From NCBI GenBank assembly GCA_965231045.1, contig OZ246406.1:116295-180294 (forward strand): a DNA stretch of 64,000 nt, written 5' to 3'. Under the pieces are notes generated by a model, which worked only from the letters and a program-made list of their open reading frames with translations, was not told where the DNA came from and did not search any database. This stretch comes from an uncultured Candidatus Saccharibacteria bacterium. Its GTDB lineage: Bacteria; Patescibacteriota; Saccharimonadia; Saccharimonadales; JAGQNJ01. The position numbers and the translations under genes are program-made. Shown one piece after another: positions 13,797 through 64,000 of the stretch; within the stretch, counting starts at the first letter, position 1, and each line of letters starts with the position of its first letter.

Positions 13797-13804
13797 ATTT
13801 TGTT

Positions 13805-18918: not shown

Positions 18919-18921
18919 TGG

Positions 18922-33913: not shown

Positions 33914-33963
33914 CCGGACTATTAAAACACAGAATATCCACTTTAGCTATAAAATGTTATATC

Positions 33964-34168: not shown

Positions 34169-34265
34169 TCAATTTGCTTATGGAAAACAGATTAACTATA
34201 GCACGAAAATAATTACAAAAACACCTTGCACCTCTCTTGTAAAGTGAGTATCCTAAGAAGTACGA

Positions 34266-35162: not shown

Positions 35163-36388
35163 TGATTATCAATAACATCAAGCTATCTACGCATGCTATC
35201 AAAACTTCACGATGGCGAAGCCTCTTGACTATGTTTGGGATTATTATTGGTGTGGCGTCAGTTATTACAACCGTAAGCCTTGGAGAAGGCGTCAAAACTC
35301 AGATAACCCAACAAATTAATTATCTTGGACGTGACGTAATAACCATACGCCCCGGCCAACCGGTAAAGCGAGATAACCAAGGCGGCATAACAGCCATCAA
35401 TTTTATATCGAATCTCGGCAGCAATACCTTGACTGATGAAGATTTAAAAACAATTCAAAATACCCCAGGTGTAGAAAAAGTCGTGCCACTAACGCTAATA
35501 AACGGAACGCCAACTTATGAAGGCACCGATTTTAACAAGGCGGTTACAATTTCTAGCACTAGTGATCTACCAGATATTTTGAAACACAAAATCGAATTTG
35601 GAGAATACTTCCATGCCGAGGATGAAGGCAAAAATGTCGCAGTAATTGGCTCAAAAGTAGCCCACGAACTTTTTAAAGAAAATGTACCAATTGGTAAGTC
35701 GTTTACTTTTCGCCATCAAGACTTTGTGGTTAGAGGTGTGTTTGATAATTTTGATAGTAACCCGCTTATACCGGGAGTTGATTTTAACTCAGCAATTTTC
35801 ATCCCTAACCTGACGGGCAAAACTCTCACCAATAACAGTGCTCAAATATTCCAGGTTTTTGTTAAACCCCAAGATACAAACAATGTTGATGGCGAGATTA
35901 ATAATTTGCGCTCACAATTAATGGCATCGCATGGCGGTGAAGAAGATTTCACCATTCTTACCCAAGCTGAAACACTCAGCCAAACCAATGATGTTCTGTC
36001 ACTGTTGACAAGTTTAGTTGCAAGTATTGCTGCTATTTCACTAATTGTCGGTGGAATTGGCGTTATGAATATTATGCTTGTTTCTGTAATAGAAAGAACT
36101 CACGAAATTGGTATTCGAAAAGCAATCGGTGCGACTAATCGCCAAATACTAAATGAGTTTTTGATTGAAGCCATGGTTATAAGTGTTATGGGTGGCATTG
36201 CTGGTAGCATCTTGGCTGTAATGATAAATATACTCTTGAGAATATTTACAAATCTGCAACCAGTAATTACTTGGCCAATGTTTGTAATTGCCAATGCTGT
36301 ATCGTTGGCCGTCGGGGTTATATTTGGTGTGGCACCAGCCATAAAAGCTGCCCGCAAAGACCCTATTCAAGCTCTACGTAATGAATAA
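35162..36388 (+). CDS. ABC permease, MacB/FtsX type
   Basis: TM1, then an extracytoplasmic domain of about 230 aa, then the FtsX 3-TM module with ERTHEIGIRKAIGA. It overlaps the ATPase gene by 1 nt (TAATG). Confidence 0.9.
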   Translation: MIINNIKLSTHAIKTSRWRSLLTMFGIIIGVASVITTVSLGEGVKTQITQQINYLGRDVITIRPGQPVKRDNQGGITAINFISNLGSNTLTDEDLKTIQNTPGVEKVVPLTLINGTPTYEGTDFNKAVTISSTSDLPDILKHKIEFGEYFHAEDEGKNVAVIGSKVAHELFKENVPIGKSFTFRHQDFVVRGVFDNFDSNPLIPGVDFNSAIFIPNLTGKTLTNNSAQIFQVFVKPQDTNNVDGEINNLRSQLMASHGGEEDFTILTQAETLSQTNDVLSLLTSLVASIAAISLIVGGIGVMNIMLVSVIERTHEIGIRKAIGATNRQILNEFLIEAMVISVMGGIAGSILAVMINILLRIFTNLQPVITWPMFVIANAVSLAVGVIFGVAPAIKAARKDPIQALRNE

Positions 36389-41200: not shown

Positions 41201-44200
41201 TTCACAGGACACTGGTTGGCATCATATTGCTGCGACGTACGACGGTACGACTATGAAAATATATATAGATGGGGCTCTCAATAGTTCGACAAATACTTCC
41301 CTCTCCATGCCAGATACAACCCAACCGTTATTACTTGGTTCGACTTATGGTGGTGGTAGTCCAGAATCAGGCTGGGCCCAGGGATACTTTACGGGAAGTC
41401 TTGATGAGATTCGAATAAGTAATACTGCAAGAAATAGCTTTACTTCAAAGCCGTATGTATCAACAGCACAAAGCATTACCTTAAATACTAACTCTTTAAC
41501 ACAAGGAGTTAAGTCACTTGATAGTTTCTCAGCAAGCGAAAGCCCAAATGGAGGGACCATAACGTATCGTTTGAGCGACGATGGCGGTAGTACTTGGAAA
41601 TATTGGAACGGATCCGCATGGGCGACGTCATCAAGTACTAATGAATCAAATGCCGCATCGGTTATTAACACCAACATACCAACCTTCCCAGTTACATTTT
41701 ATGGCTTACGTTGGCAGGCAATATTTACGGGTAGTGGTTCGCAGCAAGTTACTCTTAATTCGGTAACCGTACTGGCTACATCTGACAATATTGAGCCAAG
41801 TACGAATGCTAGCAGTATACTGGCATACAAAACTAACGGCGGCACAGCCCTTAACTCCAATGATTGGACGAATGGTGGCTCTCCGTACTTCACATGGACG
41901 GCAGGTAGCGATGCGGAATCCGGCATTTATGGCTATTGTCTTTATCTTGGCCAAGATAATACAGCTGACCCAATAACGACCAAGGGCCTACTCGGTACTA
42001 GCCCTACATATACCGGTAGTCATTGCCAATTCTTGGTTACTTCGGCTAGTGTTGACCTGGCGACATCAGGATACCTTGGCACGGCCATGACTACTTCAAA
42101 TACGCCGTACTATTTGCGAATAAAAGCCATCGATAAAGCTGGAAATGTCTATAGCACGAGTGCTGCACAGTTCCAGTTTAGATTTGATAATACGCCACCA
42201 ACAAATCCGGGATACATTACTGCCCCATCAGGATTTATTAACACTAAAAATGCCACGTTATCATGGCCGACAGTTGGCGGTCAGGCTCCTGCAGATGGTG
42301 CATCAGGGGTTGCCGGCCTTCAGTATCGCGTTAATAACTCACTTTGGTATGGCGATAGTCATACCGGCGCTGGTGACATCAATGATCTGCTTACAAATGA
42401 TGGTAGTTATAACACGACCGATCCGCCAGACTTCGGTAACTTAACAGAGGGTATCAATACAATATACTTTAGAACTTGGGATCAGGCAGGAAACGTTACT
42501 ACTAGCTACATTACTGCTGCCTTAAAGGTAAACACTTCTGGCGCACCTTCTGAGCCGCAAAATGTACTTGTAAATCCATCAACCAATACAGCCAACTCAT
42601 TTGCCTTTAGCTGGGATGCTCCGGTTACTTATGTTGGTGACGTCAGTAACATAACCTACTGCTACACAATTAATGTTCTGCCATCGGAAAGCAACTGTAC
42701 TTATACTAGCCCTGGCATACGTAGCTTAGGGGCGGGCCCCTATGCTACTCAACCCGGATCAAATACTTTCTACGTAGTTGCCAGGGATGAATCCAGCAAC
42801 ATCAACTATTCTAGTTATGCGACTACGACATTTACGGCAAATACGCCATCTCCTGGTATTCCGACAAACACAGATATTGTTGACGTGTCTATAAAAGCTA
42901 CCAGCAATTGGCGATTGGCGCTAACTTGGGAACCACCGGCAAATCCTGGGGCCGGAATTAGCAATTATAAAGTCTATCGATCAACGAACTTAAACGGTAG
43001 CTTTAGCTTTGTAGGAAGCAGTAGTAGCACAACTTATATCGATGCTGGTTTGAGTCCGCAGACCTATTATTACCGCGTACGCGCTTGTGATAGTACAAAC
43101 AATTGTAGTGCCGACGGTACGACTGTATCGATGCTGCCTACAGGTAAATTTACGTCACCTGCCAATCTGACTAGTGAGCCTCAAGTTTCTGGCGTTACTA
43201 CTAAGCGATCTAAGATCACATGGTCAACGGATCGCACTAGCGATTCAAAAGTCGCCATTGGTACATCAAGCGGCAAATATAGTGCTTCAGAAGTTGGAAA
43301 TTCCGATCAAGTTACGAGCCATAGTATCGATTTAGATAACCTAGCTGCGGGGACTACCTACTACTTTGTCGTCAAATGGACCGATGAAGACGGTAATACC
43401 GGAACCAGCCAAGAGTATAGCTTTACGACATCCCCTGCACCGGTCGTGAAAGAAATAAATGCGGTCAAGATCGGCTTAACAACGACGACTCTGCAGTTCA
43501 CTTCCAAGGGGGCCAATAAGATTAATGTTTACTATGGCCTAAGTGAATCTTATGGCGGCCTGGTTACTATCAACACCTCACAAGCCGAATCAACGTATAA
43601 TGTAGAATTAAGTGGCCTAAGCGACGGCTCAAAATACTTCTATAAGCTAAGTGCCTTTGATAGCGAAGGTACTGAATATCAGGGCAATGTATTGTCATTT
43701 ACTACCCCTGCCCGACCACACATATCCGACCTAAGGTTCCAGCCCGTCAGTGGTGAGCCAACTAGTACGCAAAAAGTCACCTGGTCCACTAACGTACCAG
43801 CTTCATCGACAATTACTTATGGAAAAGTTAACACTAACGGAATTGACGTTCAGGACTCTACCCTTGCAACCAGCCATGAAATAACGATAAGAGGCCTTGA
43901 GGATGACAGCGAATACTTCTTGCTTGCCCAAAGTCGTGACAAGGATGGTAACTTGGCTGTGTCCGACAAACAGGTCTTTAAGACAGCTCTTGATACTCGA
44001 CCACCGAAAGTTTCGGACATTAACGTTGAGCCATCGATTCGGGGGCTTGGAGCTGAAGCGCGTGGACAAGTTATTGTGTCGTGGAAGACCGACGAGCCAT
44101 CATCAAGCCAAGTTGCCTACGGCGAAGGTTCAAATGCCAAAGTCTTTAATAGCAAAACGACCGAAGATACTAGCTTGACCACTGAACATATAGTTGTTGT

Positions 44201-44363
44201 TTCGGACTTGCCTACTTCAAAGGTCTACAGCCTGGCTCCTGTGTCACGCGATAAGGCCGGAAACACAGGGAACGGAGAACCACAGTCGGCAATTATTGGT
44301 CGAGGTAGTGAAAGCGTGCTGACGATAATTCTTAATACATTACAGAAAGTGTTTGGGTTGTAG
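38214..44363 (+). CDS. Giant (2049 aa) N-terminally anchored surface protein: split LamG-like domain, 14 blade repeats, FN3-like modules
   Basis: Lys-rich N-terminus and a TM segment near aa 94-113 (HAIALSMYILFIASLIISSY). LamG-like halves lie at aa ~150-270 and ~989-1075 (WHHIAATYDGTTMKIYIDG...GSLDEIRISN). Fourteen repeats occupy aa 275-988. FN3-like modules follow, for example SNYKVYRS...YYYRVRACD. Four tandem modules of about 92 aa occupy aa ~1650-2025. Confidence 0.9.
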   Translation: MSVVRVIAKKTRTHVKKIRKKTRPLLVSLNKSLKKNLKILAKQVKKITIVGALTLHRLAKFTHHHVATRPHQHLSNKYKWYRDWHEWPHSKRVHAIALSMYILFIASLIISSYRLTFASDLNSTWDFSTPSNYTYDNGIELNGSLSRLKAQNYSSDANTSALYHLDESNGTAASDSSSNNNTATTSGSPTFGTGNLNNALSFNGTTQNASAPDSTSLSLSQQNSLEAWTKFNSSFSAGSHDQKQGILDKGAYKLYYDQETGKVTYELANSTATAWSQQAGNDINGSWDLNGKFAVNAQQYVNGKLYVGLGNAVGDAEVWSWDGTSWSQVGGDGKNSSWADQTYENVDTLNFNGNTLYAGLGSSTGDAEVWSCDTSTSCATWTKIGGDGINSGWAVNTYEDVTSMTVMSGTLYVGLGTTANDAEVWRWNGSAWTKIGGDSINSGWTTNYESVYSLTNDGTNVYAGLGLTAGDAEVWKWNGSAWSKIGGDAVNSSWADVTYEEVISMRYFGGNLYAGIGLTAGDAEVWSWNGTTWTKIGGDTLNSSWDSVSYEGVYSLADDGTNLYAGLGSTAGDNEVWKWNGSAWSKIGGDAVNSGFTNTHTIVQSLVYANSTLYAGLQATANNSEVWSFNGTSWTRIGGGGINKSWGYFNLQNVESMTRSGDYLYAGTGYTVAGNALIWRFDGTSWQLVGGQGVNSSWSATTYEDVMSMTSFGGNLYVGLGTTANDAEVWKYNGSTWTQIGGDSLNSGWGAGYEEVYSMAVYGGNLYAGLGNSANDAEVWKWNGTTWTKIGGDSLNSGWTTNFERVSSLAVYGGDLYAGLGASTTDAEVWKWNGSVWSKIGGDGVSSSWNVNYEQVETLSVYNGKLYAGLGNSTADAEVWEYNGTAWSQIGGDGLNSGWADGQYEQVKSIAVYNGKLYVGLGNTAGDGEVWVYENGVWAKSAGGGTNSSWVANTIETVQTLCVFRGKLYAGLGNTANSDAQVWSLGNNGFLQSASTSQDTGWHHIAATYDGTTMKIYIDGALNSSTNTSLSMPDTTQPLLLGSTYGGGSPESGWAQGYFTGSLDEIRISNTARNSFTSKPYVSTAQSITLNTNSLTQGVKSLDSFSASESPNGGTITYRLSDDGGSTWKYWNGSAWATSSSTNESNAASVINTNIPTFPVTFYGLRWQAIFTGSGSQQVTLNSVTVLATSDNIEPSTNASSILAYKTNGGTALNSNDWTNGGSPYFTWTAGSDAESGIYGYCLYLGQDNTADPITTKGLLGTSPTYTGSHCQFLVTSASVDLATSGYLGTAMTTSNTPYYLRIKAIDKAGNVYSTSAAQFQFRFDNTPPTNPGYITAPSGFINTKNATLSWPTVGGQAPADGASGVAGLQYRVNNSLWYGDSHTGAGDINDLLTNDGSYNTTDPPDFGNLTEGINTIYFRTWDQAGNVTTSYITAALKVNTSGAPSEPQNVLVNPSTNTANSFAFSWDAPVTYVGDVSNITYCYTINVLPSESNCTYTSPGIRSLGAGPYATQPGSNTFYVVARDESSNINYSSYATTTFTANTPSPGIPTNTDIVDVSIKATSNWRLALTWEPPANPGAGISNYKVYRSTNLNGSFSFVGSSSSTTYIDAGLSPQTYYYRVRACDSTNNCSADGTTVSMLPTGKFTSPANLTSEPQVSGVTTKRSKITWSTDRTSDSKVAIGTSSGKYSASEVGNSDQVTSHSIDLDNLAAGTTYYFVVKWTDEDGNTGTSQEYSFTTSPAPVVKEINAVKIGLTTTTLQFTSKGANKINVYYGLSESYGGLVTINTSQAESTYNVELSGLSDGSKYFYKLSAFDSEGTEYQGNVLSFTTPARPHISDLRFQPVSGEPTSTQKVTWSTNVPASSTITYGKVNTNGIDVQDSTLATSHEITIRGLEDDSEYFLLAQSRDKDGNLAVSDKQVFKTALDTRPPKVSDINVEPSIRGLGAEARGQVIVSWKTDEPSSSQVAYGEGSNAKVFNSKTTEDTSLTTEHIVVVSDLPTSKVYSLAPVSRDKAGNTGNGEPQSAIIGRGSESVLTIILNTLQKVFGL
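39036..41177 (+). repeat. 14 tandem coding repeats, period ~150-165 nt (50-55 aa)
   Basis: The recurring pattern is LYAGLGxxxGDAEVWxWNGxxWxxIGGDxxNSxWxxxxYExVxS. The GDAEVW-equivalent positions fall at aa 314, 365, 420, 470, 521, 572, 622, 674, 725, 775, 825, 875, 926 and 978. Confidence 0.92.
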
Positions 44364-44365
44364 CA

Positions 44366-45142
44366 ATGAATAGTAATCTGAACACAGTTATAAGTATCTC
44401 TAAGGTAAGCCAGTCGTTTAAAGTTGGTGATGAAAATATACAAGTGCTGAGCGATGTTAATTTCAAGATTTTAGAAAATACTTTCAATATTCTTTATGGA
44501 CCATCTGGGTCTGGTAAATCAACCTTACTTAATATTCTCACGGGTTTGCAGAAGCCAAGTCAAGGTAGTGTAACTTTTAATAATCGTGATATCTACAATC
44601 TAATACCTAATCAACTAGCGCATTTCCGAGCGAACGATATCGGCATTATGTATCAGCAGAACTATTGGGTAAAAAGTCTTAACGTCGTTGAAAATGTTTC
44701 AGTCCCTCTATACTTCTTAGGTTATTCCCGAGCCAAAGCGCAAAAAATTGCTCAGGATACACTAAACAGATTTAGCATGGGTGAATATTCTAAGAAAACA
44801 CCATTCTTGTTATCTGGTGGTGAGCAACAACGTATTGCCTTAGCCCGTGCCGTCGTTAATGATCCGCTAGTCATTGTTGCGGATGAGCCAACTGGAAATT
44901 TGGATAGTAAAAATGGTGATATGATTATGAACTTACTTCAACAATATCAAACAGAACTAAAACGTACGATTATCTTGGTCACCCACAACCTTGAGTATTT
45001 GCCGCTTGCTGATCAGTTGATTCATATTCAAGATGGTCGTGTTGAAGAAATGCTAGATGGTGATATTCAAGAAACCACCAACCAGTTGCTTGGCGATATG
45101 AAAGCCCGTATTGATCGATTGTCGAAAGCGAGGCAAAAATGA
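44366..45142 (+). CDS. ABC transporter ATP-binding protein (FtsE/LolD/MacB-like)
   Basis: Walker A GPSGSGKST, signature LSGGEQQR, Walker B VIVADEPTGNLD. Its ATG lies 2 nt after the giant gene's stop. Confidence 0.92.
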   Translation: MNSNLNTVISISKVSQSFKVGDENIQVLSDVNFKILENTFNILYGPSGSGKSTLLNILTGLQKPSQGSVTFNNRDIYNLIPNQLAHFRANDIGIMYQQNYWVKSLNVVENVSVPLYFLGYSRAKAQKIAQDTLNRFSMGEYSKKTPFLLSGGEQQRIALARAVVNDPLVIVADEPTGNLDSKNGDMIMNLLQQYQTELKRTIILVTHNLEYLPLADQLIHIQDGRVEEMLDGDIQETTNQLLGDMKARIDRLSKARQK

Positions 45143-46377
45143 GCCTACGACAAAATATTAATGACTATCTAAAGAACCGTAAGAATTACCGAGCAATCCA
45201 CTTGAAGGTTCTGCTTTACATGGCCTGGAAGAATCTAATCAGCAAGAAGCTTAGAACAGCTCTAACTATCTCAGGTGTTGTCATTGGTATTACAGCTATA
45301 TTCTTTTTGCTGTCCTTTGGGCTTGGTATTCAACAGCTTGTAACTAAGCAGGTTGTTGGTGATAGATCTCTAAAGTCGATTGACATAAACACACCTAACT
45401 CCAAGGTCCTCAAACTTAATGAAGAGTTTGTTAACAAGGTTAAATCATACCCGCATGTCGATAAGGTTGGCACGGAGTATTCTTTCCCCGGCGCAATTTC
45501 ATATAAAGGTGGTGAAATTGATAGTGTTGTCTACGGCATTAATGATGATTACCAAAAACTTCTTACTTTAAATCTGACGTCTGGTCGGTTATTAAAAAGT
45601 GATGACAACAAGGCAATCCTTATTAACAAATCTGCACTAGATGCAATCGGGCTAAAGGATAAGCCGGTTGACCAAAAGCTAACAATAACAATCCCTCTGA
45701 AGAACTCCAGTCAGAAAGCCCAGCAAATTAAAGAAGAATTTACGATCGTTGGTGTAGTTGACTCGGGTGCTGGAAGCGAAATATTTATGCCGGACCATGT
45801 TTTTAGCCTGGCAGGAGTTACAACCTATCAGCAAGTAAAAGTTGTAGCCGACAAGAACGACAACGTGGCGAGTCTAAGAAAACAAATTGAGAGTAATGGT
45901 TTTCAGACTACTTCACTTGGCGACACGCTTGTTGAGATGAATCGAATATTTAAGTTCTTCAATGTAATACTAGTTAGTTTTGGTAGCATTGGTATGGTTG
46001 TATCTATTCTGGGTATGTTTAACACTCTAACCATATCCTTGCTGGAAAGAACAAAAGAAATTGGACTGATGATAACTCTAGGCGGCCGGCCGTCAGACAT
46101 GCGCAAACTGTTTATACTGGAAGCCGTAGTTATCTCGATTGTAGGTGCAATCATAGGTATTATAGGTGCAGTAATGATCGGTAGGCTTGTAAACGTTGTT
46201 ATGAATGGCTTCGCGGCACATCGTGGCGTAACAGAACGTTTTAATTTGTTCTCAACGCCTATGTGGGCAATCGGGGTTATTGTCCTTATGACTACTGTCG
46301 TCGGTCTGGTTGTAGTTTACTTCCCTGCTCGACGAGCTGAAAAGATCAGCCCAATAGATGCCCTCAGACGAGAATAA
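45139..46377 (+). CDS. ABC permease, FtsX/MacB type
   Basis: TM1 (LTISGVVIGITAIFFLLSF), an extracytoplasmic domain of about 230 aa, and the FtsX module ERTKEIGLMITLGG plus 3 TM segments. ATGA overlap with the ATPase gene at 45139-45142. Confidence 0.9.
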   Translation: MSLRQNINDYLKNRKNYRAIHLKVLLYMAWKNLISKKLRTALTISGVVIGITAIFFLLSFGLGIQQLVTKQVVGDRSLKSIDINTPNSKVLKLNEEFVNKVKSYPHVDKVGTEYSFPGAISYKGGEIDSVVYGINDDYQKLLTLNLTSGRLLKSDDNKAILINKSALDAIGLKDKPVDQKLTITIPLKNSSQKAQQIKEEFTIVGVVDSGAGSEIFMPDHVFSLAGVTTYQQVKVVADKNDNVASLRKQIESNGFQTTSLGDTLVEMNRIFKFFNVILVSFGSIGMVVSILGMFNTLTISLLERTKEIGLMITLGGRPSDMRKLFILEAVVISIVGAIIGIIGAVMIGRLVNVVMNGFAAHRGVTERFNLFSTPMWAIGVIVLMTTVVGLVVVYFPARRAEKISPIDALRRE

Positions 46378-47440: not shown

Positions 47441-48163
47441 ATGAAAGAATGGGATTTCAGTAACCTTAAGGCAGTGTTCATTAATTGCACGCTTTCTCCG
47501 TCCCCTAAAATTAGTCATACCGAAAAACTTGCTCAAATAAGTATAGATATAATGAATAAACATGGTGTAAAAACGGAAATGATTCGCCTGGTTGATCATG
47601 ATGTTGCCCCAGGTGTTTATCCTGATATGACCAAGCATGGTTTTAAAACTGATGAATGGCCAAAGATTCAAAAGAAAGTTATGGATGCCGATATATTGGT
47701 GCTGTGTGGGCCTATTTGGCTTGGTGACAACAGCAGTGAAATGAAGAAAGCCATTGAGCGACTTTATGCTAATTCGGGTGATCTTAATAAGGCTGGTCAG
47801 TATGCTTATTACGGTAAAGTCGGTGGTTGTCTTATCACTGGTAACGAAGACGGCATAAAACACTGCGCTATGAATATCCTTTATAGTTTGCAACATCTTG
47901 GGTATACAATTCCACCACAAGCGGATGCGGGTTGGATTGGTGAGGCTGGGCCTGGAGCAAGCTACGGTGACAAATTAGAAGATGGAACGATCGTTGGTGT
48001 AAGCAATGACTTTACGAACCGCAATACTACTTTTATGACGTGGAACTTGATGCACCAAGCAAAACTGCTCAAAGAAAATGGCGGCGTACCAGCTTATGGT
48101 AACCAGCGATCAGAGTGGGATGCGGGCGCTCGTTTTGATTTCGAAAATCCAGAATACCGTTAG
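47441..48163 (+). CDS. Flavodoxin-like NAD(P)H-dependent FMN reductase family protein
   Basis: KAVFINCTLSPSPKISHTEKL...ADILVLCGPIWLGDNSS... is the typical layout of this family. Confidence 0.78.
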   Translation: MKEWDFSNLKAVFINCTLSPSPKISHTEKLAQISIDIMNKHGVKTEMIRLVDHDVAPGVYPDMTKHGFKTDEWPKIQKKVMDADILVLCGPIWLGDNSSEMKKAIERLYANSGDLNKAGQYAYYGKVGGCLITGNEDGIKHCAMNILYSLQHLGYTIPPQADAGWIGEAGPGASYGDKLEDGTIVGVSNDFTNRNTTFMTWNLMHQAKLLKENGGVPAYGNQRSEWDAGARFDFENPEYR

Positions 48164-49182
48164 GTGTTTAGGGGCAATCTTAGAATAAACGTTGACCCGT
48201 GATTCACTTTACTTTTGACTTCAATGCTACCATCATGAAGCTCAATAATGTTTTTGGCGATCGAAAGTCCCAGGCCATGCCCCTCATTATGTTGCTTGCT
48301 GCGAGCTGAATCAGCTCTATAGAAACGCTCAAAAATATGACTTAATTCGGATGGTTTGATCCCGATCCCCTGGTCTATGACGTCAATCCTGACATCACTT
48401 TTAGTAAGCTGGAGCTTAACTTCGATTGATGAATTTTTAGGGCTGTACTTGATTGCATTATCAACAAGAATGGTAATTACCTCAATGATACTCGCTCTAT
48501 CAACGAGAACCATGGCATCGTTTGGTAGGGTTGTAATAATCTTTAAGTTTTTCGTTTTAGCTAAGGCTTTCGCTCGATCGGTTGATTCTAGAATCATTTT
48601 CTTCAAAGAAGCTGGTTTTTTCTCGATTGAGTCATTTTCTAGACTGGCCAGTTTTAGAAGGCCTTCTGATAGAGCAGTTAAGCGTGCCAATTCTTCTAGA
48701 TTACTCTTAAGCTGCTGTTTGGCTTGCTTTAGAGTAAGGTTAGGGTTCATGAGTGTAACCTCAATTTCAGTTTGCATAGCGGCAATTGGTGTCCGGAGTT
48801 CATGGCTAGCATCTGCAGTAAATCTTTCAAGCGCTTCATGAGACTCTTCGATCGGCCGTAAGGTTCGTCGCGCCAGGTAATAGCTCAAAAAGTAACCACC
48901 AACCAAGATAAATACATTAGTTAGTATTAACCTGCCTAAAATGTGTGCTCGAGCTTCGTTGAGTTCAAGTAAGCGATCATTAGTAAATTGATTAAGTGTA
49001 TCAAGTGGTATTGCCCCACCTGGCAATCTATCAATAAATACTCCTTGACGACGAAAACCACGATTTAGTTCTTGTACGGAAACACTATACAAATTAATAC
49101 TGAAGAATATGCTTATAGCCATCATTATTGATAAGTAAACGGCGGTAAGCTTGGTAGATGTTTTATGAAAAATTAGATTCAC
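48160..49182 (-). CDS. Sensor histidine kinase
   Basis: 2 TM segments, H-box FTADASHELRTPI, N-box LVDNAIKYS, and G-boxes DQGIGI and GHGLGLS. 4-nt overlap with the response regulator gene. Confidence 0.9.
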   Translation of the reverse strand: MNLIFHKTSTKLTAVYLSIMMAISIFFSINLYSVSVQELNRGFRRQGVFIDRLPGGAIPLDTLNQFTNDRLLELNEARAHILGRLILTNVFILVGGYFLSYYLARRTLRPIEESHEALERFTADASHELRTPIAAMQTEIEVTLMNPNLTLKQAKQQLKSNLEELARLTALSEGLLKLASLENDSIEKKPASLKKMILESTDRAKALAKTKNLKIITTLPNDAMVLVDRASIIEVITILVDNAIKYSPKNSSIEVKLQLTKSDVRIDVIDQGIGIKPSELSHIFERFYRADSARSKQHNEGHGLGLSIAKNIIELHDGSIEVKSKVNHGSTFILRLPLNT

Positions 49183-49856
49183 TTTTTGACCCCAAAGTAA
49201 TATCCAAAGCCCCGACGGGTGTGAATTAACTGAGTTTTAAATGGTTTATCAATTTTATTTCGCAAGTAGCCTATGTAGACTTCGATGGTGTTTGGTAATA
49301 TCTCTGAATCATAGTCCCAAACATGTTGCATTAGCGTATCTTTGGTTAGTATTTGTTCGGCATGTGTCATTAAGTATTCAAGGAGCGCAAACTCCTTGGC
49401 CGTTAGTTCGATTGACTTACCGGCTCTAGTAACGCTAAGACTCTTTGAGTCTAGGACTAGATTATCGTATTCAAGAATGTCGGTCTTACTTTGTTGTGGG
49501 CGACGCAGTAATGCCCTAACGCGAGCGACTAGTTCGACAAAAGCGAAAGGCTTAACTAAATAGTCATCGGCACCACTATTCAGCCCATGAGCGCGATCAA
49601 GCACTTTATCTTTAGCAGTTAAAAGCAGGATTGGCATATGTAATTTTTGGTCCCGAACGTTCTTAAGAATACCTATGCCATCAACTGATCCCGGTAGCAT
49701 GCGGTCAAGAATTATTAGATCATACGGCTCATTCAGGGCCATACTCAAACCATCATCGCCATCATATGCCACGTCAACGGCGTATGATTGCTGCTCCAAG
49801 CCTCGCTTGATTGCGTTGGCAATTTTATGTTCATCCTCAACTACGAGTATTCGCAT
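49179..49856 (-). CDS. OmpR/PhoB-family response regulator
   Basis: The receiver is MRILVVEDEHKIA...DLIILDRMLPG. The winged-helix output is LTAKEFALLEYL...VYIGYLRNKID...IHTRRGFGY. Confidence 0.93.
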   Translation of the reverse strand: MRILVVEDEHKIANAIKRGLEQQSYAVDVAYDGDDGLSMALNEPYDLIILDRMLPGSVDGIGILKNVRDQKLHMPILLLTAKDKVLDRAHGLNSGADDYLVKPFAFVELVARVRALLRRPQQSKTDILEYDNLVLDSKSLSVTRAGKSIELTAKEFALLEYLMTHAEQILTKDTLMQHVWDYDSEILPNTIEVYIGYLRNKIDKPFKTQLIHTRRGFGYYFGVKK

Positions 49857-54086: not shown

Positions 54087-55223
54087 TTATTTGGTTGAGT
54101 GCTGTGATTTCAAAGCTTCGGACAATTCCCGCTTGGCAAATGCCGCACAGGCAGCCTTAGCGTCAGCATACATCATTTGTTTTGGCGGGGTTTTTTGTGT
54201 CCAGGCACTTGGGCCTCTAAGAGCGCCAACAATTCCCATTTCTTTGGCGACTTGTAGATAGCGAATAGCATCAATCACTACGCCAGCACTGTTTTCAGAA
54301 TCTTGCACTGATAACTTGACGTCAATTGTTACTGGAGCATCCCCAAAACCACGTAAACGTAGATTAAAATAAGCTACTTTGTTATCTTCAAGGTATGGCA
54401 GATACGTACTAGGCCCAGCAAATAAACTGTTCTTGGCGACTGGGATACCTCGAATTTCGTTTTGAGCACGAATCACATTCTCTTTTGATTTTTTCTTAGA
54501 TGCTAAACGACTCTGGACCATCATGTTGTTAAAGTCAGTATTCCCACCTATATTTAGTTGCTGATGAAAATCTACAATCATGCCGCGATCAAAAGCGAGC
54601 TCTTGAAGAACTTGGCTTAACACGCTGGCTCCAAGTTGACTACGCATATCATCGCCAACAATTGGTAGGCCCGCATCAACAAACTTCTTCTCCCATTTTG
54701 GATCGCTAGCAATAAATACAGGGATACAGTTTAAGAACGCTACTTCGGCATCAATTGCGGCCTGAGCATAAAACTCCGTTGCTTTTTGTGACCCAACGGG
54801 TAAATAATTAACCAATATATCGGCACCACTATCTTTTAAGGCTTTAGCAACGTCCACAGGTTTTTCCTTCGAAATTCTAAAAGCCTCATCTTCTGGTTGC
54901 TCAAGCATATAGTCGGATACGCCATCATGGACTTCGCCCATTAGAACTTTCGGCCCATCCGGTACTTTTGGCATAAATATCCGGGCACAGTTCGGCTTGG
55001 CAAATATAGCTCTACCAATTGGCTGCCCCACTTTACGTTTATCGACATCAAAAGCTGCCACAACTTCTATGTCGGTTGGAGAGTAGCCACCGATATCGGC
55101 AAACATAATACCGGGTATATCATTAGATTTGTTACCAGAGTAGTACGCAAAACCCTGATACAAAGCTGAAAAACAGTTACCAATACCAACGACCGCAATT
55201 TTAATGTTTTTTTGTTTAGTCAT
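54087..55223 (-). CDS. ino1: myo-Inositol-1-phosphate synthase
   Basis: IKIAVVGIGNCFSALYQGFAYY..., LPVGSQKATEFYAQAAIDAEVAFLNCIP and NIGGNTDF are hallmarks of bacterial/archaeal MIPS. Confidence 0.9.
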   Translation of the reverse strand: MTKQKNIKIAVVGIGNCFSALYQGFAYYSGNKSNDIPGIMFADIGGYSPTDIEVVAAFDVDKRKVGQPIGRAIFAKPNCARIFMPKVPDGPKVLMGEVHDGVSDYMLEQPEDEAFRISKEKPVDVAKALKDSGADILVNYLPVGSQKATEFYAQAAIDAEVAFLNCIPVFIASDPKWEKKFVDAGLPIVGDDMRSQLGASVLSQVLQELAFDRGMIVDFHQQLNIGGNTDFNNMMVQSRLASKKKSKENVIRAQNEIRGIPVAKNSLFAGPSTYLPYLEDNKVAYFNLRLRGFGDAPVTIDVKLSVQDSENSAGVVIDAIRYLQVAKEMGIVGALRGPSAWTQKTPPKQMMYADAKAACAAFAKRELSEALKSQHSTK

Positions 55224-56991: not shown

Positions 56992-59184
56992 GTGAATAAA
57001 TCGCAGAAGCTGCTTATTATTTCAAATCGTTTGCCAGTAAGTGTGATTAAAAAAGATGGCAAACTTATTTTTACCCACAGTGATGGTGGATTAGCTACGG
57101 GATTAAGCTCGGCTGGGAAAGGCATGCAGAAGCTATGGATGGGGTGGCCTGGCATAGCATCGGATGATCTAACATCCAAAGAAAAACGACAGATTATATC
57201 CGAGCTTAAGAAAGTTAACTGCATACCAATCTTTCTGACCGATAAACAAGTTAATTCATTCTATTTTGGATATTCCAACACCACGATTTGGCCGTTGTTC
57301 CATTACTTTGCACTTTATACAAAGTACCCTGCTGAGTATTGGAAGGGATACCAGGAAGTTAATAAAATTTTTTGTCATGAAGCCGCTCGATACACAGACA
57401 CTAATACTTTGGTTTGGATTCATGACTATCAGCTGATGCTACTTCCTGAGCTTTTACGTAACGAACGGCCAAAAGCATCCATTGGATTTTTCTTACATAT
57501 TCCCTTTCCATCATTTGAGACATTTCGTTTGCTTCCTCAACGTGCTGCAATTTTACGAGGTCTATTAGGGGCTGATCTCATCGGCTTTCATACTTACAGT
57601 TACACCAGGCACTTTTTAAGTAGCGTACTGCGTGTTTTAGGCTGTGAAATTAACTTGGGCCGGGTTACTTACGGAGATCGAGTTATTAGAACTGATGCCT
57701 TCCCTATTAGTATTGACTATAAAAAGTTTGCAACTGCCGTTAAAAAAGCTAAGGCACAAAAAGAAATTGCCAGCCTGCGAAAAGCTAAGGATCAAAAGAT
57801 GATACTTTCACTTGATCGATTGGACTATTCCAAGGGTATCTTAGAACGTCTAAAAGCTTACGACTTGTTTTTAGAACAAAACCCAAAGTTCCATGGGAAA
57901 GTTACAATGCAAGTAATTGCCATCCCATCTAGGGTAAAAGTTAGTGCCTACAAAGGTCTAAGAGTTGATATTGAACAAACAGTGAGTAGAATTAACGGGA
58001 AATATTCAACCTCAAGCTGGGCTCCAATTAATTATCGCTATCGTTCAATTCCGTTCGAACAATTAGTCGCACTTTATTATCAGGCCGATGTTGCTTTAGT
58101 TACGCCACTACGTGATGGTATGAACTTGGTAGCTAAGGAGTACGTTGCTGCTAGTCAAAGTGGCCGAGGAGTTTTGATCTTAAGTGAAATGGCTGGGGCG
58201 GCTAGTGAGCTTACAGAAGCCCTGCAAGTTAACCCAAATAATAAAGAACAAGTGGCGACAGCAATTCAAAGAGCTTTGACTATGCCAGTCGACGAACAAA
58301 AAATTCGTATGCGTTCCTTGCAGCATCGAGTGTCTAACTACGACATTAAAAAATGGACCAATGACTTTTTGGAACAACTGAAAGTTGTTAAGAAAGATCA
58401 GCAACAACAGCTTGATAAAAAACTAACGACTCAGCACAAAAAACAATTGATAAATGCCTACAAAAAATCCAAAGCAAGTTTGATACTGCTTGACTACGAC
58501 GGCACCTTAATTGACTTTGCTCCTGAGCCACACCACCGACTTGCCTTTCCAACTAAACAAATGAAGGAAATACTGGGCAAACTTAAAAAGTCTAATGATG
58601 ATGAAATTGTAATTGTTAGTGGACGATCTAAAGAAACTTTGCAAGCTTGGTTTGGCAGGCTGCCTGTTTCTTTAGTTGCTGAGCATGGTGGCTGGGTAAA
58701 GCAAGGGCCTAATTGGCTACAGCAAAAAGAACTATTAAAAAATTGGAAGGATAATCTTCGGCCAATTTTGCAGCGATACGTTGATCGTACGGTGAATTCG
58801 TTATTAGAAGAAAAAGACTTTTCGCTCGTATGGCACTATCGTAATGTTTCACATTCACTTGCCGGTATTCGTAAAGCCGAGCTGCGAAATGATATATTGG
58901 CGGCTATTAAAAACACTGACATTGGTCTTTTTGAAGGTAGTAAGATTTTTGAAGTAAAACCCTTGCATATTCAAAAAGGTATTTTTACTCAAGCAAATGC
59001 TGAGAGAAAAAAATGGGACTTCATACTAGCAATTGGGGATGACTATACTGACGAGGACATGTTTAAGGCCCTACCAAAATCGGCCTATACAATAAAAGTT
59101 GGTCTAGGAGAAACAGCCGCAAAATACTTTCTAGCAAGCAGTGAAGACGTACTTGGTCTACTAAACCAAATGACGTCCAAGTAA
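56992..59184 (+). CDS. otsA: Bifunctional trehalose-6-phosphate synthase/phosphatase (GT20 plus HAD)
   Basis: LLIISNRLPV...GGLATGL...WMGWPG...IHDYQLMLLP is OtsA-like. The C-terminal LILLDYDGTLI...VSGR...IGDDYTDEDMF is OtsB-like. GTG start. Confidence 0.92.
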   Translation: MNKSQKLLIISNRLPVSVIKKDGKLIFTHSDGGLATGLSSAGKGMQKLWMGWPGIASDDLTSKEKRQIISELKKVNCIPIFLTDKQVNSFYFGYSNTTIWPLFHYFALYTKYPAEYWKGYQEVNKIFCHEAARYTDTNTLVWIHDYQLMLLPELLRNERPKASIGFFLHIPFPSFETFRLLPQRAAILRGLLGADLIGFHTYSYTRHFLSSVLRVLGCEINLGRVTYGDRVIRTDAFPISIDYKKFATAVKKAKAQKEIASLRKAKDQKMILSLDRLDYSKGILERLKAYDLFLEQNPKFHGKVTMQVIAIPSRVKVSAYKGLRVDIEQTVSRINGKYSTSSWAPINYRYRSIPFEQLVALYYQADVALVTPLRDGMNLVAKEYVAASQSGRGVLILSEMAGAASELTEALQVNPNNKEQVATAIQRALTMPVDEQKIRMRSLQHRVSNYDIKKWTNDFLEQLKVVKKDQQQQLDKKLTTQHKKQLINAYKKSKASLILLDYDGTLIDFAPEPHHRLAFPTKQMKEILGKLKKSNDDEIVIVSGRSKETLQAWFGRLPVSLVAEHGGWVKQGPNWLQQKELLKNWKDNLRPILQRYVDRTVNSLLEEKDFSLVWHYRNVSHSLAGIRKAELRNDILAAIKNTDIGLFEGSKIFEVKPLHIQKGIFTQANAERKKWDFILAIGDDYTDEDMFKALPKSAYTIKVGLGETAAKYFLASSEDVLGLLNQMTSK

Positions 59185-59616: not shown

Positions 59617-60293
59617 TTATAAATGTGGTTTGTGTAGTACAAAGAGTATAGCATTTACGATTAGCAGACTGCCAAGTATTAGGCTGATATTACAAACTAA
59701 CTTTTTGCCATATTGGCTTAGCAGTTTATCAGAGGTAGTGAGTAAATGCCGCCTTTTTGATTTAGGTGCAATAATGAAAAGCACAATGATTGCCACCTGA
59801 ATAATAAGTGCTGCAATAGTATAAGCCAGGACCCCGCTTAATAGCCTTATGTTTGATAGGTGTAGTTGACCAGCATGTATCATGGCAATGATAAATACAC
59901 CGTCAAGCAATGACTGTATTGTAACGAGTAAAAAACCATAACTGAATAAAAAGAAATCGTTTACATTTATATACCTAAGTAAACGCTTTGGCCTGGTTGT
60001 TTTGTCTCGATTTTTAAGTGAGTACAGTCCGAACCCCAGCATGCGATTCCAATAAATAGTTGAAATGCCGGTACTATCCATTTGTGGCCATCCTCTGCTT
60101 TTACTATTACTTCACCAAACCCACGAGCAAAAAGTAGCCCCATTGCTGTTAGGGCTAAGGCACTGCCAAGCAAAAAAATAATCCCCCTTTTGATGGGACG
60201 CTTTTGTGTCAGGAGTACAATAATTAGCCCGATGCCGACTGGGTCAAACGCCGCCAAGCCTAGGAGTGCCATAGAGACTAATAGTGTAAGCAT
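59617..60293 (-). pseudogene. GAP/Sap-like multi-TM membrane protein split by a frameshift
   Basis: ORFs 59967-60293 and 59617-60081 overlap in different frames. Joining them at the G4 tract (C4 on the + strand, 60034-60037) restores a continuous TM segment, VPAFQLFIGIACWG|FGLYSLKNRDK. Confidence 0.55.
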
Positions 60294-60351
60294 TACTTTT
60301 ATGATATCAAAACTGCTGGACTCATGCTCACATCAAGCGTACATTATTTGT

Positions 60352-61941
60352 ATGAAGAGTAAGTGGACAGTCATCATTATATTGTGTCTAGCACAGTTTG
60401 TTATGGTACTTGATAGTACGGTTATGAATGTCTCACTCACTACTGTTGCCAGTGATTTGCATACGACCATTTCTGGTATGCAGGCAGCGATTACTTTTTA
60501 TACGCTTACCATGGCCGCCTTAATGTTGACCGGCGGTAAAATGGGCGATATTTGGGGCCGTCGCCGGGCCTTTAAAATTGGGGCGGTAGTCTATGGGGTT
60601 GGATCACTAATAACAGGGCTTAGCCCGAGCTTGCCAGTTTTACTACTCGGCTGGTCGTTCATTGAAGGTTTAGGAGCGGTATTGGTGATACCGGCTATTG
60701 CTGCCCTCGCAGCTGTAAATTATAAAGGTAAAGATCGTGTAATGGCTTTCGCGTTGATAGGTGGCGTATCAGGAGCAGCTGCTGCAGCAGGGCCACTTAT
60801 AGGTGGTTTTGTTACCACTTACCTTTCTTGGCGTTATGTGTTTATTGCCGAGACGGTAATCATGGCAGGTGTCTTGCTAGTAACCAACAGAATTGCTGAT
60901 GAGAAAAGTACAAACAAACAAAAAATTGATATTCCTAGCGTGATCCTTTCAGCAACAGGAATGGGTGTTTTGGTTTTTGGTGTTCTGCAGAGTAAGGTCT
61001 GGGGCTGGGTTAGACCACTTAGTGCTCCAGTGGTAAACGGACATGCGATAAAGCCTTTTGGCATTTCTATTGTCGCGTATTTAATCTTAGCCGGTATTAT
61101 TGTCTTGTGGCTATTCTACACTCGTCAGTCAGACCGTGAAAAACGTAACAAGCCGGTATTGCTAAAAGTATCCTTATTATCAATCAAAGAACTTAGAAGT
61201 GGCTTATCAGTTCTTATGTCCCAGTATCTTATTATCGCTTCAATATTCTTTGTAATCCCTGTGTATTTACAGATTGTGCTTGGATATGACGCGCTGAAGA
61301 CGGGTATGAAGATATTGCCACTGTCTGTCGGGCTGATTCTGGCATCCATGATAGGTACAAAACTGGTTACTCGTTACTCACAACGTCGCGTTGTGCGTAT
61401 AGGCCAAGTTGCATTGATAGCTGGTAACTTACTGCTGATGGCTGCAATTAACCCTCAGCTGCGCGGTTGGTTGTTTGGGGCAGGCATGCTTGTTGTTGGG
61501 CTTGGGCTTGGCTTACTTGCCTCTCAACTGGGCAATATAAACATGTCAGCAGTTGGCAAGGAAAATTCGGCTGAGGGCGGCGGATTGCAAGGAACATTTC
61601 AAAATCTTGGGTCATCATTTGGAACGGCTCTAGTCGGATCAATATTTATTGCGTTTCTTACTTCTGGTTTTGTCGCAAATATTAATCGATCGAACCTCCC
61701 TGCAAACATTAAGACTTACATTTCAAATAATACTAAAGCCGGTGTGCAGGTCGTGTCAGCATCAGATGTTCAGAGCTATGCTCTATCAAAAGGAGTTTCT
61801 GATTCTGACGCTCAGACGATTGCCGATAATTACTCCTCAGCTCAAATTGATGGGCTAAAAGAATCCTTTTTCTTTATTGTAGCCATATCGACACTTTCGA
61901 TACTTTTATCTAGAAATATATCGAACAAAAAAGCTGGATAG
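60352..61941 (+). CDS. MFS transporter, DHA2/EmrB-like (14 TM)
   Basis: MKSKWTVIIILCLAQFVMVLDSTVMNVSL...GGKMGDIWGRRRAF. I take the ATG at 60352 as the start, because the tracked 5' extension is antisense to the neighbouring gene. Confidence 0.9.
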   Translation: MKSKWTVIIILCLAQFVMVLDSTVMNVSLTTVASDLHTTISGMQAAITFYTLTMAALMLTGGKMGDIWGRRRAFKIGAVVYGVGSLITGLSPSLPVLLLGWSFIEGLGAVLVIPAIAALAAVNYKGKDRVMAFALIGGVSGAAAAAGPLIGGFVTTYLSWRYVFIAETVIMAGVLLVTNRIADEKSTNKQKIDIPSVILSATGMGVLVFGVLQSKVWGWVRPLSAPVVNGHAIKPFGISIVAYLILAGIIVLWLFYTRQSDREKRNKPVLLKVSLLSIKELRSGLSVLMSQYLIIASIFFVIPVYLQIVLGYDALKTGMKILPLSVGLILASMIGTKLVTRYSQRRVVRIGQVALIAGNLLLMAAINPQLRGWLFGAGMLVVGLGLGLLASQLGNINMSAVGKENSAEGGGLQGTFQNLGSSFGTALVGSIFIAFLTSGFVANINRSNLPANIKTYISNNTKAGVQVVSASDVQSYALSKGVSDSDAQTIADNYSSAQIDGLKESFFFIVAISTLSILLSRNISNKKAG

Positions 61942-62171: not shown

Positions 62172-62945
62172 ATGCGTATCACCGCAATTTTGGCGGGGGT
62201 GTTTTTAAGTGCTGCCGTATTTTTGGCAGCCAGTTCGCCGGTGCACGCCGAAGCACCACAACAATTAGCTCTCGGCAATTCAATAAATATTAGTAATGAA
62301 CAGATTGTTCTGACTGCGGTCAATACACAGCTGCAAGTCGCACAAAAAACGTCTGATCAAAAGTCGGATCCAGTTTTGCATACGGTCGTCGAAAATGAGA
62401 CGCTGACGAGTATTGCTAGCCAATATCAAACAACTTGGCAAAGATTGTTTGCCAAGAATACAAATCTTAGCGACCCAAACGTTATTAGTGTCGGGGATGT
62501 TCTTGTGATACCAAAAAATGATGAGCAGTTGACCGAACGAGTTGTGCAAGAGCCACAACCGATAGTTGAAGAGCCGTCAGTACCAAAGCCAGCGTCTGCA
62601 CCTAAGCAATCTAAGCCAGTCGTCACTGCTAGTGCCCCGCGCGGGGGTTCCGGGGGTAATACATACTCTCCTGGATACTGCACCTGGTACGTTAAGAATC
62701 GTCGACCAGACTTGCCTAATAATTTGGGTAATGCAAATACTTGGGTAGCTAGAGCTGCTGCACAAGGCATACCTACGGGTAGTTCACCAAGAGCAGGTGC
62801 TATTGGTCAACAAGGAATGCACGTTGTCTACGTTGAGTCTGTAAATGGTGACGGTACAGTTACGATTAGCGAGATGAATCACGCTGGTTGGAATGTAGTT
62901 GATACGCGTACGGTGCCAGCCAGCTATTTCAACTACATATACTAG
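62172..62945 (+). CDS. Secreted LysM plus CHAP peptidoglycan hydrolase
   Basis: Signal peptide, LysM domain (HTVVENETLTSIASQY...VGDVLVIP), and CHAP domain (GYCTWYV...GMHVVYVESV...). Confidence 0.88.
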   Translation: MRITAILAGVFLSAAVFLAASSPVHAEAPQQLALGNSINISNEQIVLTAVNTQLQVAQKTSDQKSDPVLHTVVENETLTSIASQYQTTWQRLFAKNTNLSDPNVISVGDVLVIPKNDEQLTERVVQEPQPIVEEPSVPKPASAPKQSKPVVTASAPRGGSGGNTYSPGYCTWYVKNRRPDLPNNLGNANTWVARAAAQGIPTGSSPRAGAIGQQGMHVVYVESVNGDGTVTISEMNHAGWNVVDTRTVPASYFNYIY

Positions 62946-63000: not shown

Positions 63001-63258
63001 ATGATTAGAAATAAAGTTGCTGAAGGCGTGGTTCACAAGCTACCACCCGATCTAAAAAAGGCACTTTTAGGCTCAAAAGAGGCTTTAATGATGTGGGAAG
63101 ACATTACTCCCCTCGCACGTAACGAGTGGATTTGCTGGACTGTCACTGTAAAACAAGAAGCGACCCGGAAAGATCATGTAAGACGCGTTGTCGAAGAACT
63201 TATGCAAGGAATGAGACGTCCTTGCTGCTGGGCTGGTTGCCCGCACAGAAAGAAATAA
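63001..63258 (+). CDS. YdeI/OmpD-associated family protein
   Basis: LPPDLKKAL...WEDITPLARNEWICW...RRPCCWAGCPHR is the typical tail of this family. Confidence 0.72.
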   Translation: MIRNKVAEGVVHKLPPDLKKALLGSKEALMMWEDITPLARNEWICWTVTVKQEATRKDHVRRVVEELMQGMRRPCCWAGCPHRKK

Positions 63259-63270
63259 TTGAGAAGTTTT

Positions 63271-64000
63271 TTAGCTTGCCAGTGTAGCGGCGAATATTTG
63301 CCAAGCTAGCAAAGATTTGGCCACGAAACTTAGAATGATATAGGCCTTTTCACCGCGTATATAGTTGGCCCACTTGCCTTTTGCGCGGTATTGCTTGTAC
63401 TGAACGAGCGCAAAGCAATTAAAGAATACAAACAGTGAGATGACAATCCCGTAGACAAAGCCCGGAGCCGAAGTACCTACAGGACCTTTTGGAGTAAGTA
63501 GCTGTATGAGTATGATCACCCAAGGAATTATTCCTGCAATACAACCAAATATAAACGGTAACCATTGGCCGTCGCCTGGCTCGGCATACTTTTCCTGAAG
63601 CCAACCAAATAAAATCATCGAAACATTGACTCCAAATATGGCTAGTAAGGCAGCGTAGTCACTAATGCCATTCAACTGAGCTATTAGGAATATCATTACT
63701 GACGAGCTGATTGAGTATTCAACCCACCGAAAAATATTACGATTGTGTTTTAGCCCTTCTGAATATTTAGGGAAAAACTTTCTGGATGACACAATAAAGT
63801 GAAACAGCGCGGATAGTCCAAAGAACAGAGCGATTGTGTAACTTACGTTATTGCTAAACAGCAGTACGGGGTTTGTGAAGGTTGATCCTGGAGGTCCGGT
63901 CATGTAGGTTGCCGTGACAGGCAATGAGAAATTATTAGAAAGTGTTACTACGGCAATTAGCGAAGCTAGGTGTACTAGCCCAGCTGCAATGTTCCATGTT
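63271..64000 (-). CDS. Heliorhodopsin (N-terminus outside the window)
   Basis: The frame stays open to base 64000 (...TWNIAAGLVHLASLIAVVTLSNNFSLPVTATYMTGPPG). It carries His in GLVHLAS, His in ALFHFIVS, RWVEYSISSSVM, and S-x3-K in SFVAKSLLAWQIF, which are the positions of the key HeR residues. Confidence 0.8.
   Translation of the reverse strand, partial: TWNIAAGLVHLASLIAVVTLSNNFSLPVTATYMTGPPGSTFTNPVLLFSNNVSYTIALFFGLSALFHFIVSSRKFFPKYSEGLKHNRNIFRWVEYSISSSVMIFLIAQLNGISDYAALLAIFGVNVSMILFGWLQEKYAEPGDGQWLPFIFGCIAGIIPWVIILIQLLTPKGPVGTSAPGFVYGIVISLFVFFNCFALVQYKQYRAKGKWANYIRGEKAYIILSFVAKSLLAWQIFAATLAS

Follow-up and report, generated by a model that had tools for sequence, protein, structure and literature searches.

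The stretch of DNA considered here (64 kb; hereafter the window), from an uncultured bacterium of the Saccharimonadales, ends inside a minus-strand open reading frame (ORF) that runs from a TAA stop at 63271–63273 back to the window edge at base 64000, with 242 codons inside the window (Table 1). An earlier note, made from the sequence alone, had read this open frame as a heliorhodopsin (HeR), and the identification holds: against the Pfam family PF18761 (Heliorhodopsin) the fragment scores 301.9 bits (threshold 26.7; E = 3.7e-90) over profile positions 3–242 of 242, this being the sole Pfam family found for it at E <= 1, and the NCBIfam equivalog NF038020, 'heliorhodopsin HeR', gives 313.7 bits with a cut-off of 100. 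Since this score is so far above the cut-off (314 bits versus 100), the model is expected to name the protein automatically. The top PDB matches are the entries of HeR 48C12 (6SU3, 6UH3 and 9LJJ; E ~1e-101, ungapped), followed by TaHeR (6IS6, 1e-53). The comparison with type-1 rhodopsins, which the earlier note had proposed as a check, comes out equally clearly, the profile PF01036 giving no match to the fragment even at E <= 1; indeed, transmembrane helix 7 (TM7) carries Ser-x3-Lys and the TM3 counter-ion is a Glu, against the Asp-x3-Lys and TM3 Asp that define the type-1 proteins, so that the protein falls outside that family.

The 5' end missing from the window was recovered by extending the contig, as the same note had advised: a public contig (L087) agrees with the last 10,730 bases of the window with zero mismatches and runs on for 2,687 bases more, placing the HeR ATG at window-equivalent position 64038 and thereby adding the 38 nucleotides, or 13 residues (MNKLTDAQIKPLR), that lie beyond the window edge. 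A protein search retrieved the full-length HeR (P0001, 255 residues), 100% identical to the window fragment. By these sequence criteria the ORF is a genuine and intact heliorhodopsin of the 48C12 (actinobacterial) type, and the protein is almost certainly functional.

Table 1. Features of the heliorhodopsin locus and the only relative found on a viral contig; positions are those of the window unless another contig is named
Feature	Position	Strand	Basis or remark
Heliorhodopsin (HeR, helR) coding sequence, residues 14–255 of 255 and stop	63271..64000	(-)	ORF; Pfam, NCBIfam and PDB matches
His23 codon CAC, TM1, conserved HeR histidine	63970..63972	(-)	Direct reading and alignment; His in 80 of 81 aligned HeRs, the remaining one a gap
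His80 codon CAC, TM2, conserved HeR histidine	63799..63801	(-)	Direct reading and alignment
Glu107 codon GAA, TM3, single Schiff-base counter-ion in FRWVEYSIS	63718..63720	(-)	Invariant in 81 of 81 aligned HeRs
TM5–TM6 stretch with fenestration / proposed carotenoid-site residues F162, C166, G169, F206, N207, A210	63409..63555	(-)	All as in 48C12
S237-F-V-A-K241, TM7 Ser-x3-Lys; Schiff-base Lys AAA at 63316–63318	63316..63330	(-)	Invariant in 81 of 81 aligned HeRs
OmdA/YdeI C-terminal-domain protein, 85 residues, context gene	63001..63258	(+)	PF13376, E = 6e-15
LysM-CHAP hydrolase	62172..62945	(+)	Pfam assignment
MFS transporter	60082..61941	(+)	Pfam assignment
PF06983 glyoxalase-fold ('3-dmu-9_3-mt') gene	L087 2025..2486, past the window edge	(+)	E = 2.2e-45
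Sole viral-contig HeR relative found	L093 5001..5783		IMGVR_UViG_3300020465_000014, 65-kb viral contig; 37% identity

All of the motifs quoted in the earlier note (TWNIAAGLVH, GLVHLAS, ALFHFIVS, FRWVEYSIS and SFVAKSLLAW) are present in the ORF, and the homology of the Lys, Glu and His residues on which its call depended is borne out, H23, H80, E107, S237 and K241 falling on the corresponding positions of 48C12 in an ungapped alignment; R104, W105, Y108 and S112 are also kept (the numbering is that of 48C12). The closest structurally known relative is thus the protein from a freshwater actinobacterial fosmid (48C12; PDB 6SU3, 6SU4 and 6UH3), with which the window HeR shares 63.3% identity over residues 3–253 without a gap and, besides the five residues just named, all of the fenestration residues; its 255 residues compare with ~253–264 in the crystal constructs. 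The ~37% of residues that differ are mostly in lipid-facing and loop positions, and the hosts differ as well, 48C12 coming from Actinomycetota and the window HeR from a genome-reduced member of the Patescibacteria (Saccharimonadales). The lateral fenestration was assessed by the presence of an aromatic residue at 162 and 206, a small residue at 166 and 210, G169 and N207, a residue list taken from a 2025 preprint (bioRxiv 10.1101/2025.11.27.691015). Judged from the alignment, the window HeR carries every residue for the chromophore chemistry together with a conserved lateral fenestration.

An inverted topology, with the N-terminus in the cytoplasm and the C-terminus outside, is a defining trait of heliorhodopsins. 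In the window HeR, Lys and Arg are very unevenly distributed between the two faces of the membrane (16 in the N-terminal tail and the BC, DE and FG loops versus 1 on the opposite face), and because of this bias the positive-inside rule computationally predicts a cytoplasmic N-terminus and hence the inverted topology. A seven-transmembrane rhodopsin fold is strongly implied by the 63% ungapped identity to 6SU3.

Comparison with other rhodopsins places the protein more precisely. TaHeR, from a Thermoplasmatales archaeon (6IS6), belongs to the same family, has the same key residues and serves as the prototype for organisms that have no retinal pathway and take retinal up through a lateral fenestration; it is archaeal, however, shows only ~44% identity to the window HeR and differs from it in loop lengths. 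By identity the window HeR would be grouped with 48C12 and not with the viral HeRs of the V2HeR3 type. The type-1 proton pumps of freshwater Saccharibacteria (SacR; Jaffe et al. 2022, PMC9296517) share with it the host lineage and the presumed dependence on retinal made by others, probably Actinobacteria, and rapid retinal uptake via an opening in the protein has been reported for them; they differ in being outward proton pumps of the type-1 family, with a DTS motif, D-x3-K in place of S-x3-K, an external N-terminus and none of the single-Glu arrangement of the window HeR. Heliorhodopsins of this very lineage have already been described: in 1,326 genomes of the candidate phyla radiation (CPR), Chiriac et al. 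(2022, Microbiome 10:84, PMC9166423) found 115 rhodopsin sequences distributed over 86 genomes, 98 of the 115 being inferred HeRs and 80 of these belonging to Saccharimonadia; SFVAK is among the commonest TM7 motifs of that set, an inverted topology was inferred, and a sensory or oxidative-stress role was discussed. The window HeR, which agrees with these proteins in lineage, family and TM7 motif without any substantive difference, is one more member. Patescibacteria had also been taken in by the HeR neighbourhood analysis of Bulzu et al. (2021).

The relatives of the window HeR were sought in 185,579 species-representative genomes, and the 80 best loci were analysed. About 25 of these are of Saccharibacteria type (65–89% identity) and the rest belong to Actinomycetota (Acidimicrobiia, Nanopelagicales, Demequina and others; 61–70%), no phylum other than the Saccharibacteria group and Actinomycetota being represented among these best 80. 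More than 100 protein clusters at 80–90% identity exist in public data, and among the species representatives nearly every carrier of such a relative bears the label Saccharibacteria or Saccharimonadales, the longest of the contigs having 341 kb. Two loci carry other labels (L016, CAYMMG010000030.1, 'Burkholderiales'; L018, DAOLGI010000024.1, 'Acidimicrobiia'); their HeRs are 79–80% identical to that of the window. Both contigs have 43–45% GC, share four flanking families and are nested in the Saccharibacteria HeR clade; because of this Saccharibacteria-like GC content, synteny and tree position they most likely come from Saccharibacteria and were misbinned into other metagenome-assembled genomes (MAGs). 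On the actinobacterial side, several freshwater MAGs bear the name 'Bifidobacterium breve', apparently through a taxonomic mistake in the records.

Nonsynonymous divergence (dN, by the NG86 method) between the window gene and 19 Saccharibacteria HeRs ranges from 0.07 to 0.27 with saturated synonymous sites; owing to this saturation dS was not computable in 18 of the 19 pairs, and the one computable pair gives dN/dS = 0.066. Among 24 HeR homologues, 114 columns are invariant. On this evidence, which is qualitative, the gene is under strong purifying selection and is therefore no relic.

In a neighbour-joining tree rooted on TaHeR (100 bootstraps), the main Saccharibacteria clade of HeRs has 66% support and lies inside the actinobacterial radiation, the enclosing nodes having 78% and 50%; its nearest neighbours are Acidimicrobiia, at a node with a support of only 22%. 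The phylogeny advised in the earlier note thus gives, with moderate support, a position next to or within the actinobacterial HeRs, whereas the CPR HeRs were previously described as proteins that 'form new clades' (PMC9166423). A comparison of identities across the two phyla, crude in that paralogues may be included, gives a median of 63% for HeR versus 21–34% for the other seven families shared by both sets of loci. The nesting among actinobacterial sequences and an identity well above that of the other shared families together hint at an old lateral exchange of HeR between Saccharibacteria and Actinomycetota, moderate as the support from the tree is. Actinomycetota is a phylum that includes known hosts of Saccharibacteria. 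A phage vector was considered and rejected, given that a scan of viral contigs returned one distant HeR only (Table 1), presumably a member of the separate groups of viral HeRs.

The neighbours of HeR named in the earlier note (a YdeI-like protein, a LysM-CHAP hydrolase and an MFS transporter; Table 1) are all confirmed, and no published HeR partner class is found among them. The OmdA/YdeI gene is convergent with HeR, the two stop codons being 12 nucleotides apart. On the other side, beyond the window edge, the PF06983 gene lies 163 nucleotides upstream of HeR on the same strand; after it L087 carries small hypothetical genes as well as an AAA_33 kinase-like gene. Possible co-transcription of HeRs with genes for glyoxalase-domain proteins is on record (PMC8612252). 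Neither the window nor the 2.7 kb past its edge contains a member of a Gln-synt family, which sets the locus apart from the AbHeR group, where helR shares an operon with glutamine synthetase (and NAD+ synthetase), and none of the photolyase-, ABC-transporter-, MerR-, TerC-, SDR-, hydrolase-, DUF2177- or DUF2238-linked contexts (PMC11109279) is adjacent to the window HeR. The nearest ABC/MacB genes are >17 kb from HeR; there is no two-component system within 10 kb of it, the nearest HisKA/response-regulator pair lying ~14 kb away.

A scan with promoter and terminator consensus sequences gave neither a consensus promoter in the 163-nucleotide gap upstream of HeR nor an intrinsic terminator; the only promoter-like site is upstream of the PF06983 gene (L087 1969–1996). 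In the segment that precedes the HeR ATG (…GCATGATATTATAAATTCATG; L087 2620–2652, window-equivalent ~64036–64068, minus strand) there is no Shine-Dalgarno-like motif, and ~6 nucleotides before the ATG lies the end of an A/T-rich element similar to a -10 box. Because of these two observations there are hints of a leaderless or very short-leader transcript, to which the consensus scan lent no support.

To compare gene order, ORFs were called and clustered over 81 HeR loci (among them 25 of Saccharibacteria type and 55 actinobacterial). The Saccharibacteria neighbourhoods are highly variable, and only OmdA/YdeI recurs, apart from a weak recurrence of PF06983. OmdA/YdeI is found near HeR in 8 of the 25 Saccharibacteria-type loci (the window, L008, L011, L019, L022, L023, L025 and L031), directly beside it in 4 of these; the 55 actinobacterial loci all lack it. 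In L022 it is fused to DUF1905. This recurrence could reflect either inherited micro-synteny or a functional link. PF06983 is near HeR in 3 of the 25 (L087, L022 and L008); L087 and L022 have it directly upstream of HeR in the same orientation. The published actinobacterial contexts were recovered among L035–L086, namely glutamine synthetase (10 loci; at a median distance of ~500 bp from HeR), SDR oxidoreductase (18 loci) and sodN with the peptidase gene sodX (9 loci), with confirmation by Pfam; glutamine synthetase is adjacent to HeR in none of the 25 Saccharibacteria loci. AbHeR-type loci are represented by 10 actinobacterial relatives, whereas the window HeR is flanked by PF06983 and OmdA/YdeI.

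One locus of the Saccharibacteria type deserves separate mention. In L025 (10001–12936; Saccharimonadales, JBGSWE010000007.1) HeR is followed by one gene, the Ni-SOD gene sodN, the S26 peptidase gene sodX and OmdA. Co-transfer of HeR with Ni-SOD was considered and set aside, the L025 SodN being only 37% identical to actinobacterial SodN, with no sign of a recent joint transfer. Given this low identity, the linkage of HeR with sodN in L025 may have arisen independently; it would fit a connection of HeRs with oxidative stress.

As for the organism, the earlier note had presumed a reduced genome of symbiont type, and this premise is sound. The window has 42.5% GC and the HeR locus 41.8%; relatives of the window GltX are 71–78% identical, and all the taxon-named ones are Candidatus Saccharimonadales or Saccharibacteria; ten window proteins that were checked, together with the full-length HeR, lie on a single NCBI contig of 840,197 bp. 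The host of the gene is a member of the Saccharimonadales (CPR/Patescibacteria) with a genome of roughly 0.8–1 Mb, and probably an episymbiont. The Pfam assignments of the whole 64-kb window include no polyprenyl synthase, SQS_PSY, amino-oxidase-type desaturase, lycopene cyclase or Blh, in agreement with the earlier statement that the window has no gene for retinal biosynthesis, and they include no type-1 rhodopsin or photolyase either.

Taking these observations together, we take the gene to be a helR of the Saccharimonadales, the most likely function of its product being that of a light-dependent regulatory photoreceptor using scavenged retinal. The apoprotein would insert in the single membrane with the inverted topology, and all-trans retinal made by other organisms would enter via the fenestration; dependence on exogenous retinal is probable, and actinobacterial hosts are a likely source, because no retinal pathway is found nearby and published rhodopsin-bearing Saccharibacteria are without blh. 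In the survey of Jaffe et al. (2022, PMC9296517), the Saccharibacteria genomes with rhodopsin genes, 79–98% complete, had no blh, and the great bulk of the blh from the same lakes was actinobacterial; these authors proposed host-derived retinal for the Saccharibacteria rhodopsins. Since its retinal pocket hardly differs from the one in 48C12, the charged protein would be expected to absorb green light, to have a slow photocycle and not to pump ions; during the slow photocycle the cytoplasmic loops would modulate a partner protein, making the HeR a light-dependent regulatory or sensory rhodopsin. This last part is put forward with somewhat less assurance than the source of retinal, yet a role as regulator or sensor seems a better guess than one in energy capture. 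It is favoured because the three bacterial HeRs whose function was tested all bind and modulate a partner: AbHeR regulates glutamine synthetase (PMC9529153), TfHeR assists photolyase (PMC9769723), and OcHeR up-regulates the ABC exporter OmrDE (PMC11109279). The window HeR belongs to the same family, and its Lys/Arg-rich cytoplasmic loops could mediate contacts with proteins; genes of two-component signalling and of oxidative stress have also been linked to HeRs by genomic and transcriptomic work (PMC8612252).

Several points weigh against this assignment. Retinal binding, absorption, photocycle and the absence of transport are all extrapolated from the 63% identity to 48C12. The scan for retinal genes covered 64 kb of a contig of at least 840 kb, so that blh or crt genes elsewhere would be compatible with the data. 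The immediate neighbours, PF06983 and the convergent OmdA, are neither of them known partners. An AlphaFold2 model, computed from an alignment of 24 homologues at 80–87% identity, shows seven long helices and a short loop helix with a mean pLDDT of only 57, a value explained by the shallow alignment; in view of this low confidence the argument for the fold rests on the ungapped identity to the crystal structure 6SU3. Finally, the 2025 preprint already mentioned (bioRxiv 10.1101/2025.11.27.691015) sees HeRs as two-antenna light harvesters with exogenous xanthophylls, which would shift the function toward energy capture.

That the window HeR captures energy, either by light-driven proton transport in the manner of V2HeR3 or as a two-antenna harvester with exogenous xanthophylls bound at the fenestration, seems to us unlikely. 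The six residues F162, C166, G169, F206, N207 and A210 are indeed all present and match the carotenoid site of the preprint, and a viral HeR is known to transport protons (PMC9448325); yet the transporting viral HeRs form, according to the preprint itself, a separate subfamily without the carotenoid site, and the antenna hypothesis rests on docking and offers no downstream energy-conserving step. An energy-poor fermentative epibiont would certainly gain from such a device. Against this, the window HeR shares with 48C12 an essentially identical retinal pocket at 63% identity, and 48C12 reportedly shows no ion transport, as Pushkarev and colleagues are said to have found in 2018; the three function-tested bacterial HeRs, moreover, all act on a partner protein. 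We judge it just as unlikely that the retinal is endogenous, made by crtE/B/I/Y and blh, or by an unrecognised analogue, encoded elsewhere on the 840-kb genome. To our knowledge CPR genomes are generally without pathways for isoprenoid-derived pigments. The window, it is true, amounts to <8% of the contig, and several of its ORFs have no Pfam match; no such family is found in it, however, and the published rhodopsin-encoding Saccharibacteria genomes, 79–98% complete, have no blh (PMC9296517).

Two further explanations concern the gene rather than its function, and both may be taken as effectively excluded. It is very improbable that HeR is a passenger, recently acquired or decaying and without function, as might be thought from the greatly varying synteny around it among Saccharibacteria and from the apparent lateral relationship of the clade to actinobacterial HeRs: the full-length frame is intact and keeps every catalytic residue, over no fewer than 19 Saccharibacteria genomes dN is low and dS saturated, and the >100 clusters at 80–90% identity point to long vertical maintenance. 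Even more remote is an assembly or binning artefact by which an actinobacterial HeR fragment was misjoined to a Saccharibacteria contig. The nearest relatives outside the clade are indeed actinobacterial, and some public MAG labels within it (L016 and L018) are evidently wrong; several sequencing runs, however, gave in independent assemblies the gene and its flanks with the same neighbours, the GC content of the locus fits that of the window, the closest relatives at 80–90% identity come from Saccharimonadales contigs as long as 341 kb, and the continuity of the locus is already implied by the 840-kb contig.

With regard to novelty, the HeR family, its presence in Saccharimonadia, the TM7 motif and the scavenging of retinal are already published (PMC9166423, PMC9296517). 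The two readings offered in the earlier note, retinal scavenging and light sensing, are reasonable, and each had been proposed before for this lineage (PMC9296517, PMC9166423). The only points that may be new are that the Saccharibacteria HeR clade has an actinobacterial affinity and that OmdA recurs beside HeR; each is a side observation, moderately supported. CPR bacteria are attractive organisms in which to ask what HeRs do, given that in such tiny genomes a retained photoreceptor must earn its keep and that its chromophore is apparently not made by the cell. The practical value of the present locus is modest: the 840-kb contig is near-complete, and the full-length HeR sequence on it is clean and could be expressed; having none of the ten published partner classes, the locus could reasonably serve as a negative control or in finding a new partner. 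A more speculative scheme, which we hold to be rather improbable, is that the Saccharibacteria HeR was acquired from host Actinobacteria and serves as a light-gated sensor at the surface, charged only when host-made retinal, or a xanthophyll, is at hand, and having OmdA/YdeI as a lineage-specific partner; if this were true, the protein would report both light and host contact.

Some other genes of the window may be recorded here. Within 10 kb of HeR lie an inositol-1-phosphate synthase (54087–55223, minus strand) and a fused trehalose-6-phosphate synthase/phosphatase (OtsA-OtsB, 730 residues; 56992–59184, plus strand). The metabolism of inositol-1-phosphate and that of trehalose are typical of Actinobacteria, and for this reason the two genes might represent more host-related gene content. 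Two plus-strand ORFs overlap tRNA genes, one (13685–14473) the tRNA-Glu at 13722–13796 on the same strand and the other (33835–34212) the tRNA-Ser at 34077–34168 on the minus strand; the former, of 262 residues, is also called as a gene in the public annotation (L091) and has no credible Pfam match, and probably either its start is wrong or the ORF is spurious. A protein of 2,049 residues (38214–44363, plus strand) gives only faint matches to fn3, PhoD_N and the N-terminal domain of purple acid phosphatases, and directly after it come an ABC ATPase and a MacB/FtsX permease (44366–46377, plus strand), a further ABC-MacB pair being present at 34266–36388; the large protein may be exposed at the surface and have an exporter of its own. 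Finally, the window contains three pairs of histidine kinase and response regulator (10791–13618, 18481–20466 and 48160–49856, all on the minus strand), two of them with PAS domains, which for a CPR genome of ~0.84 Mb is a fairly high density of signalling genes.

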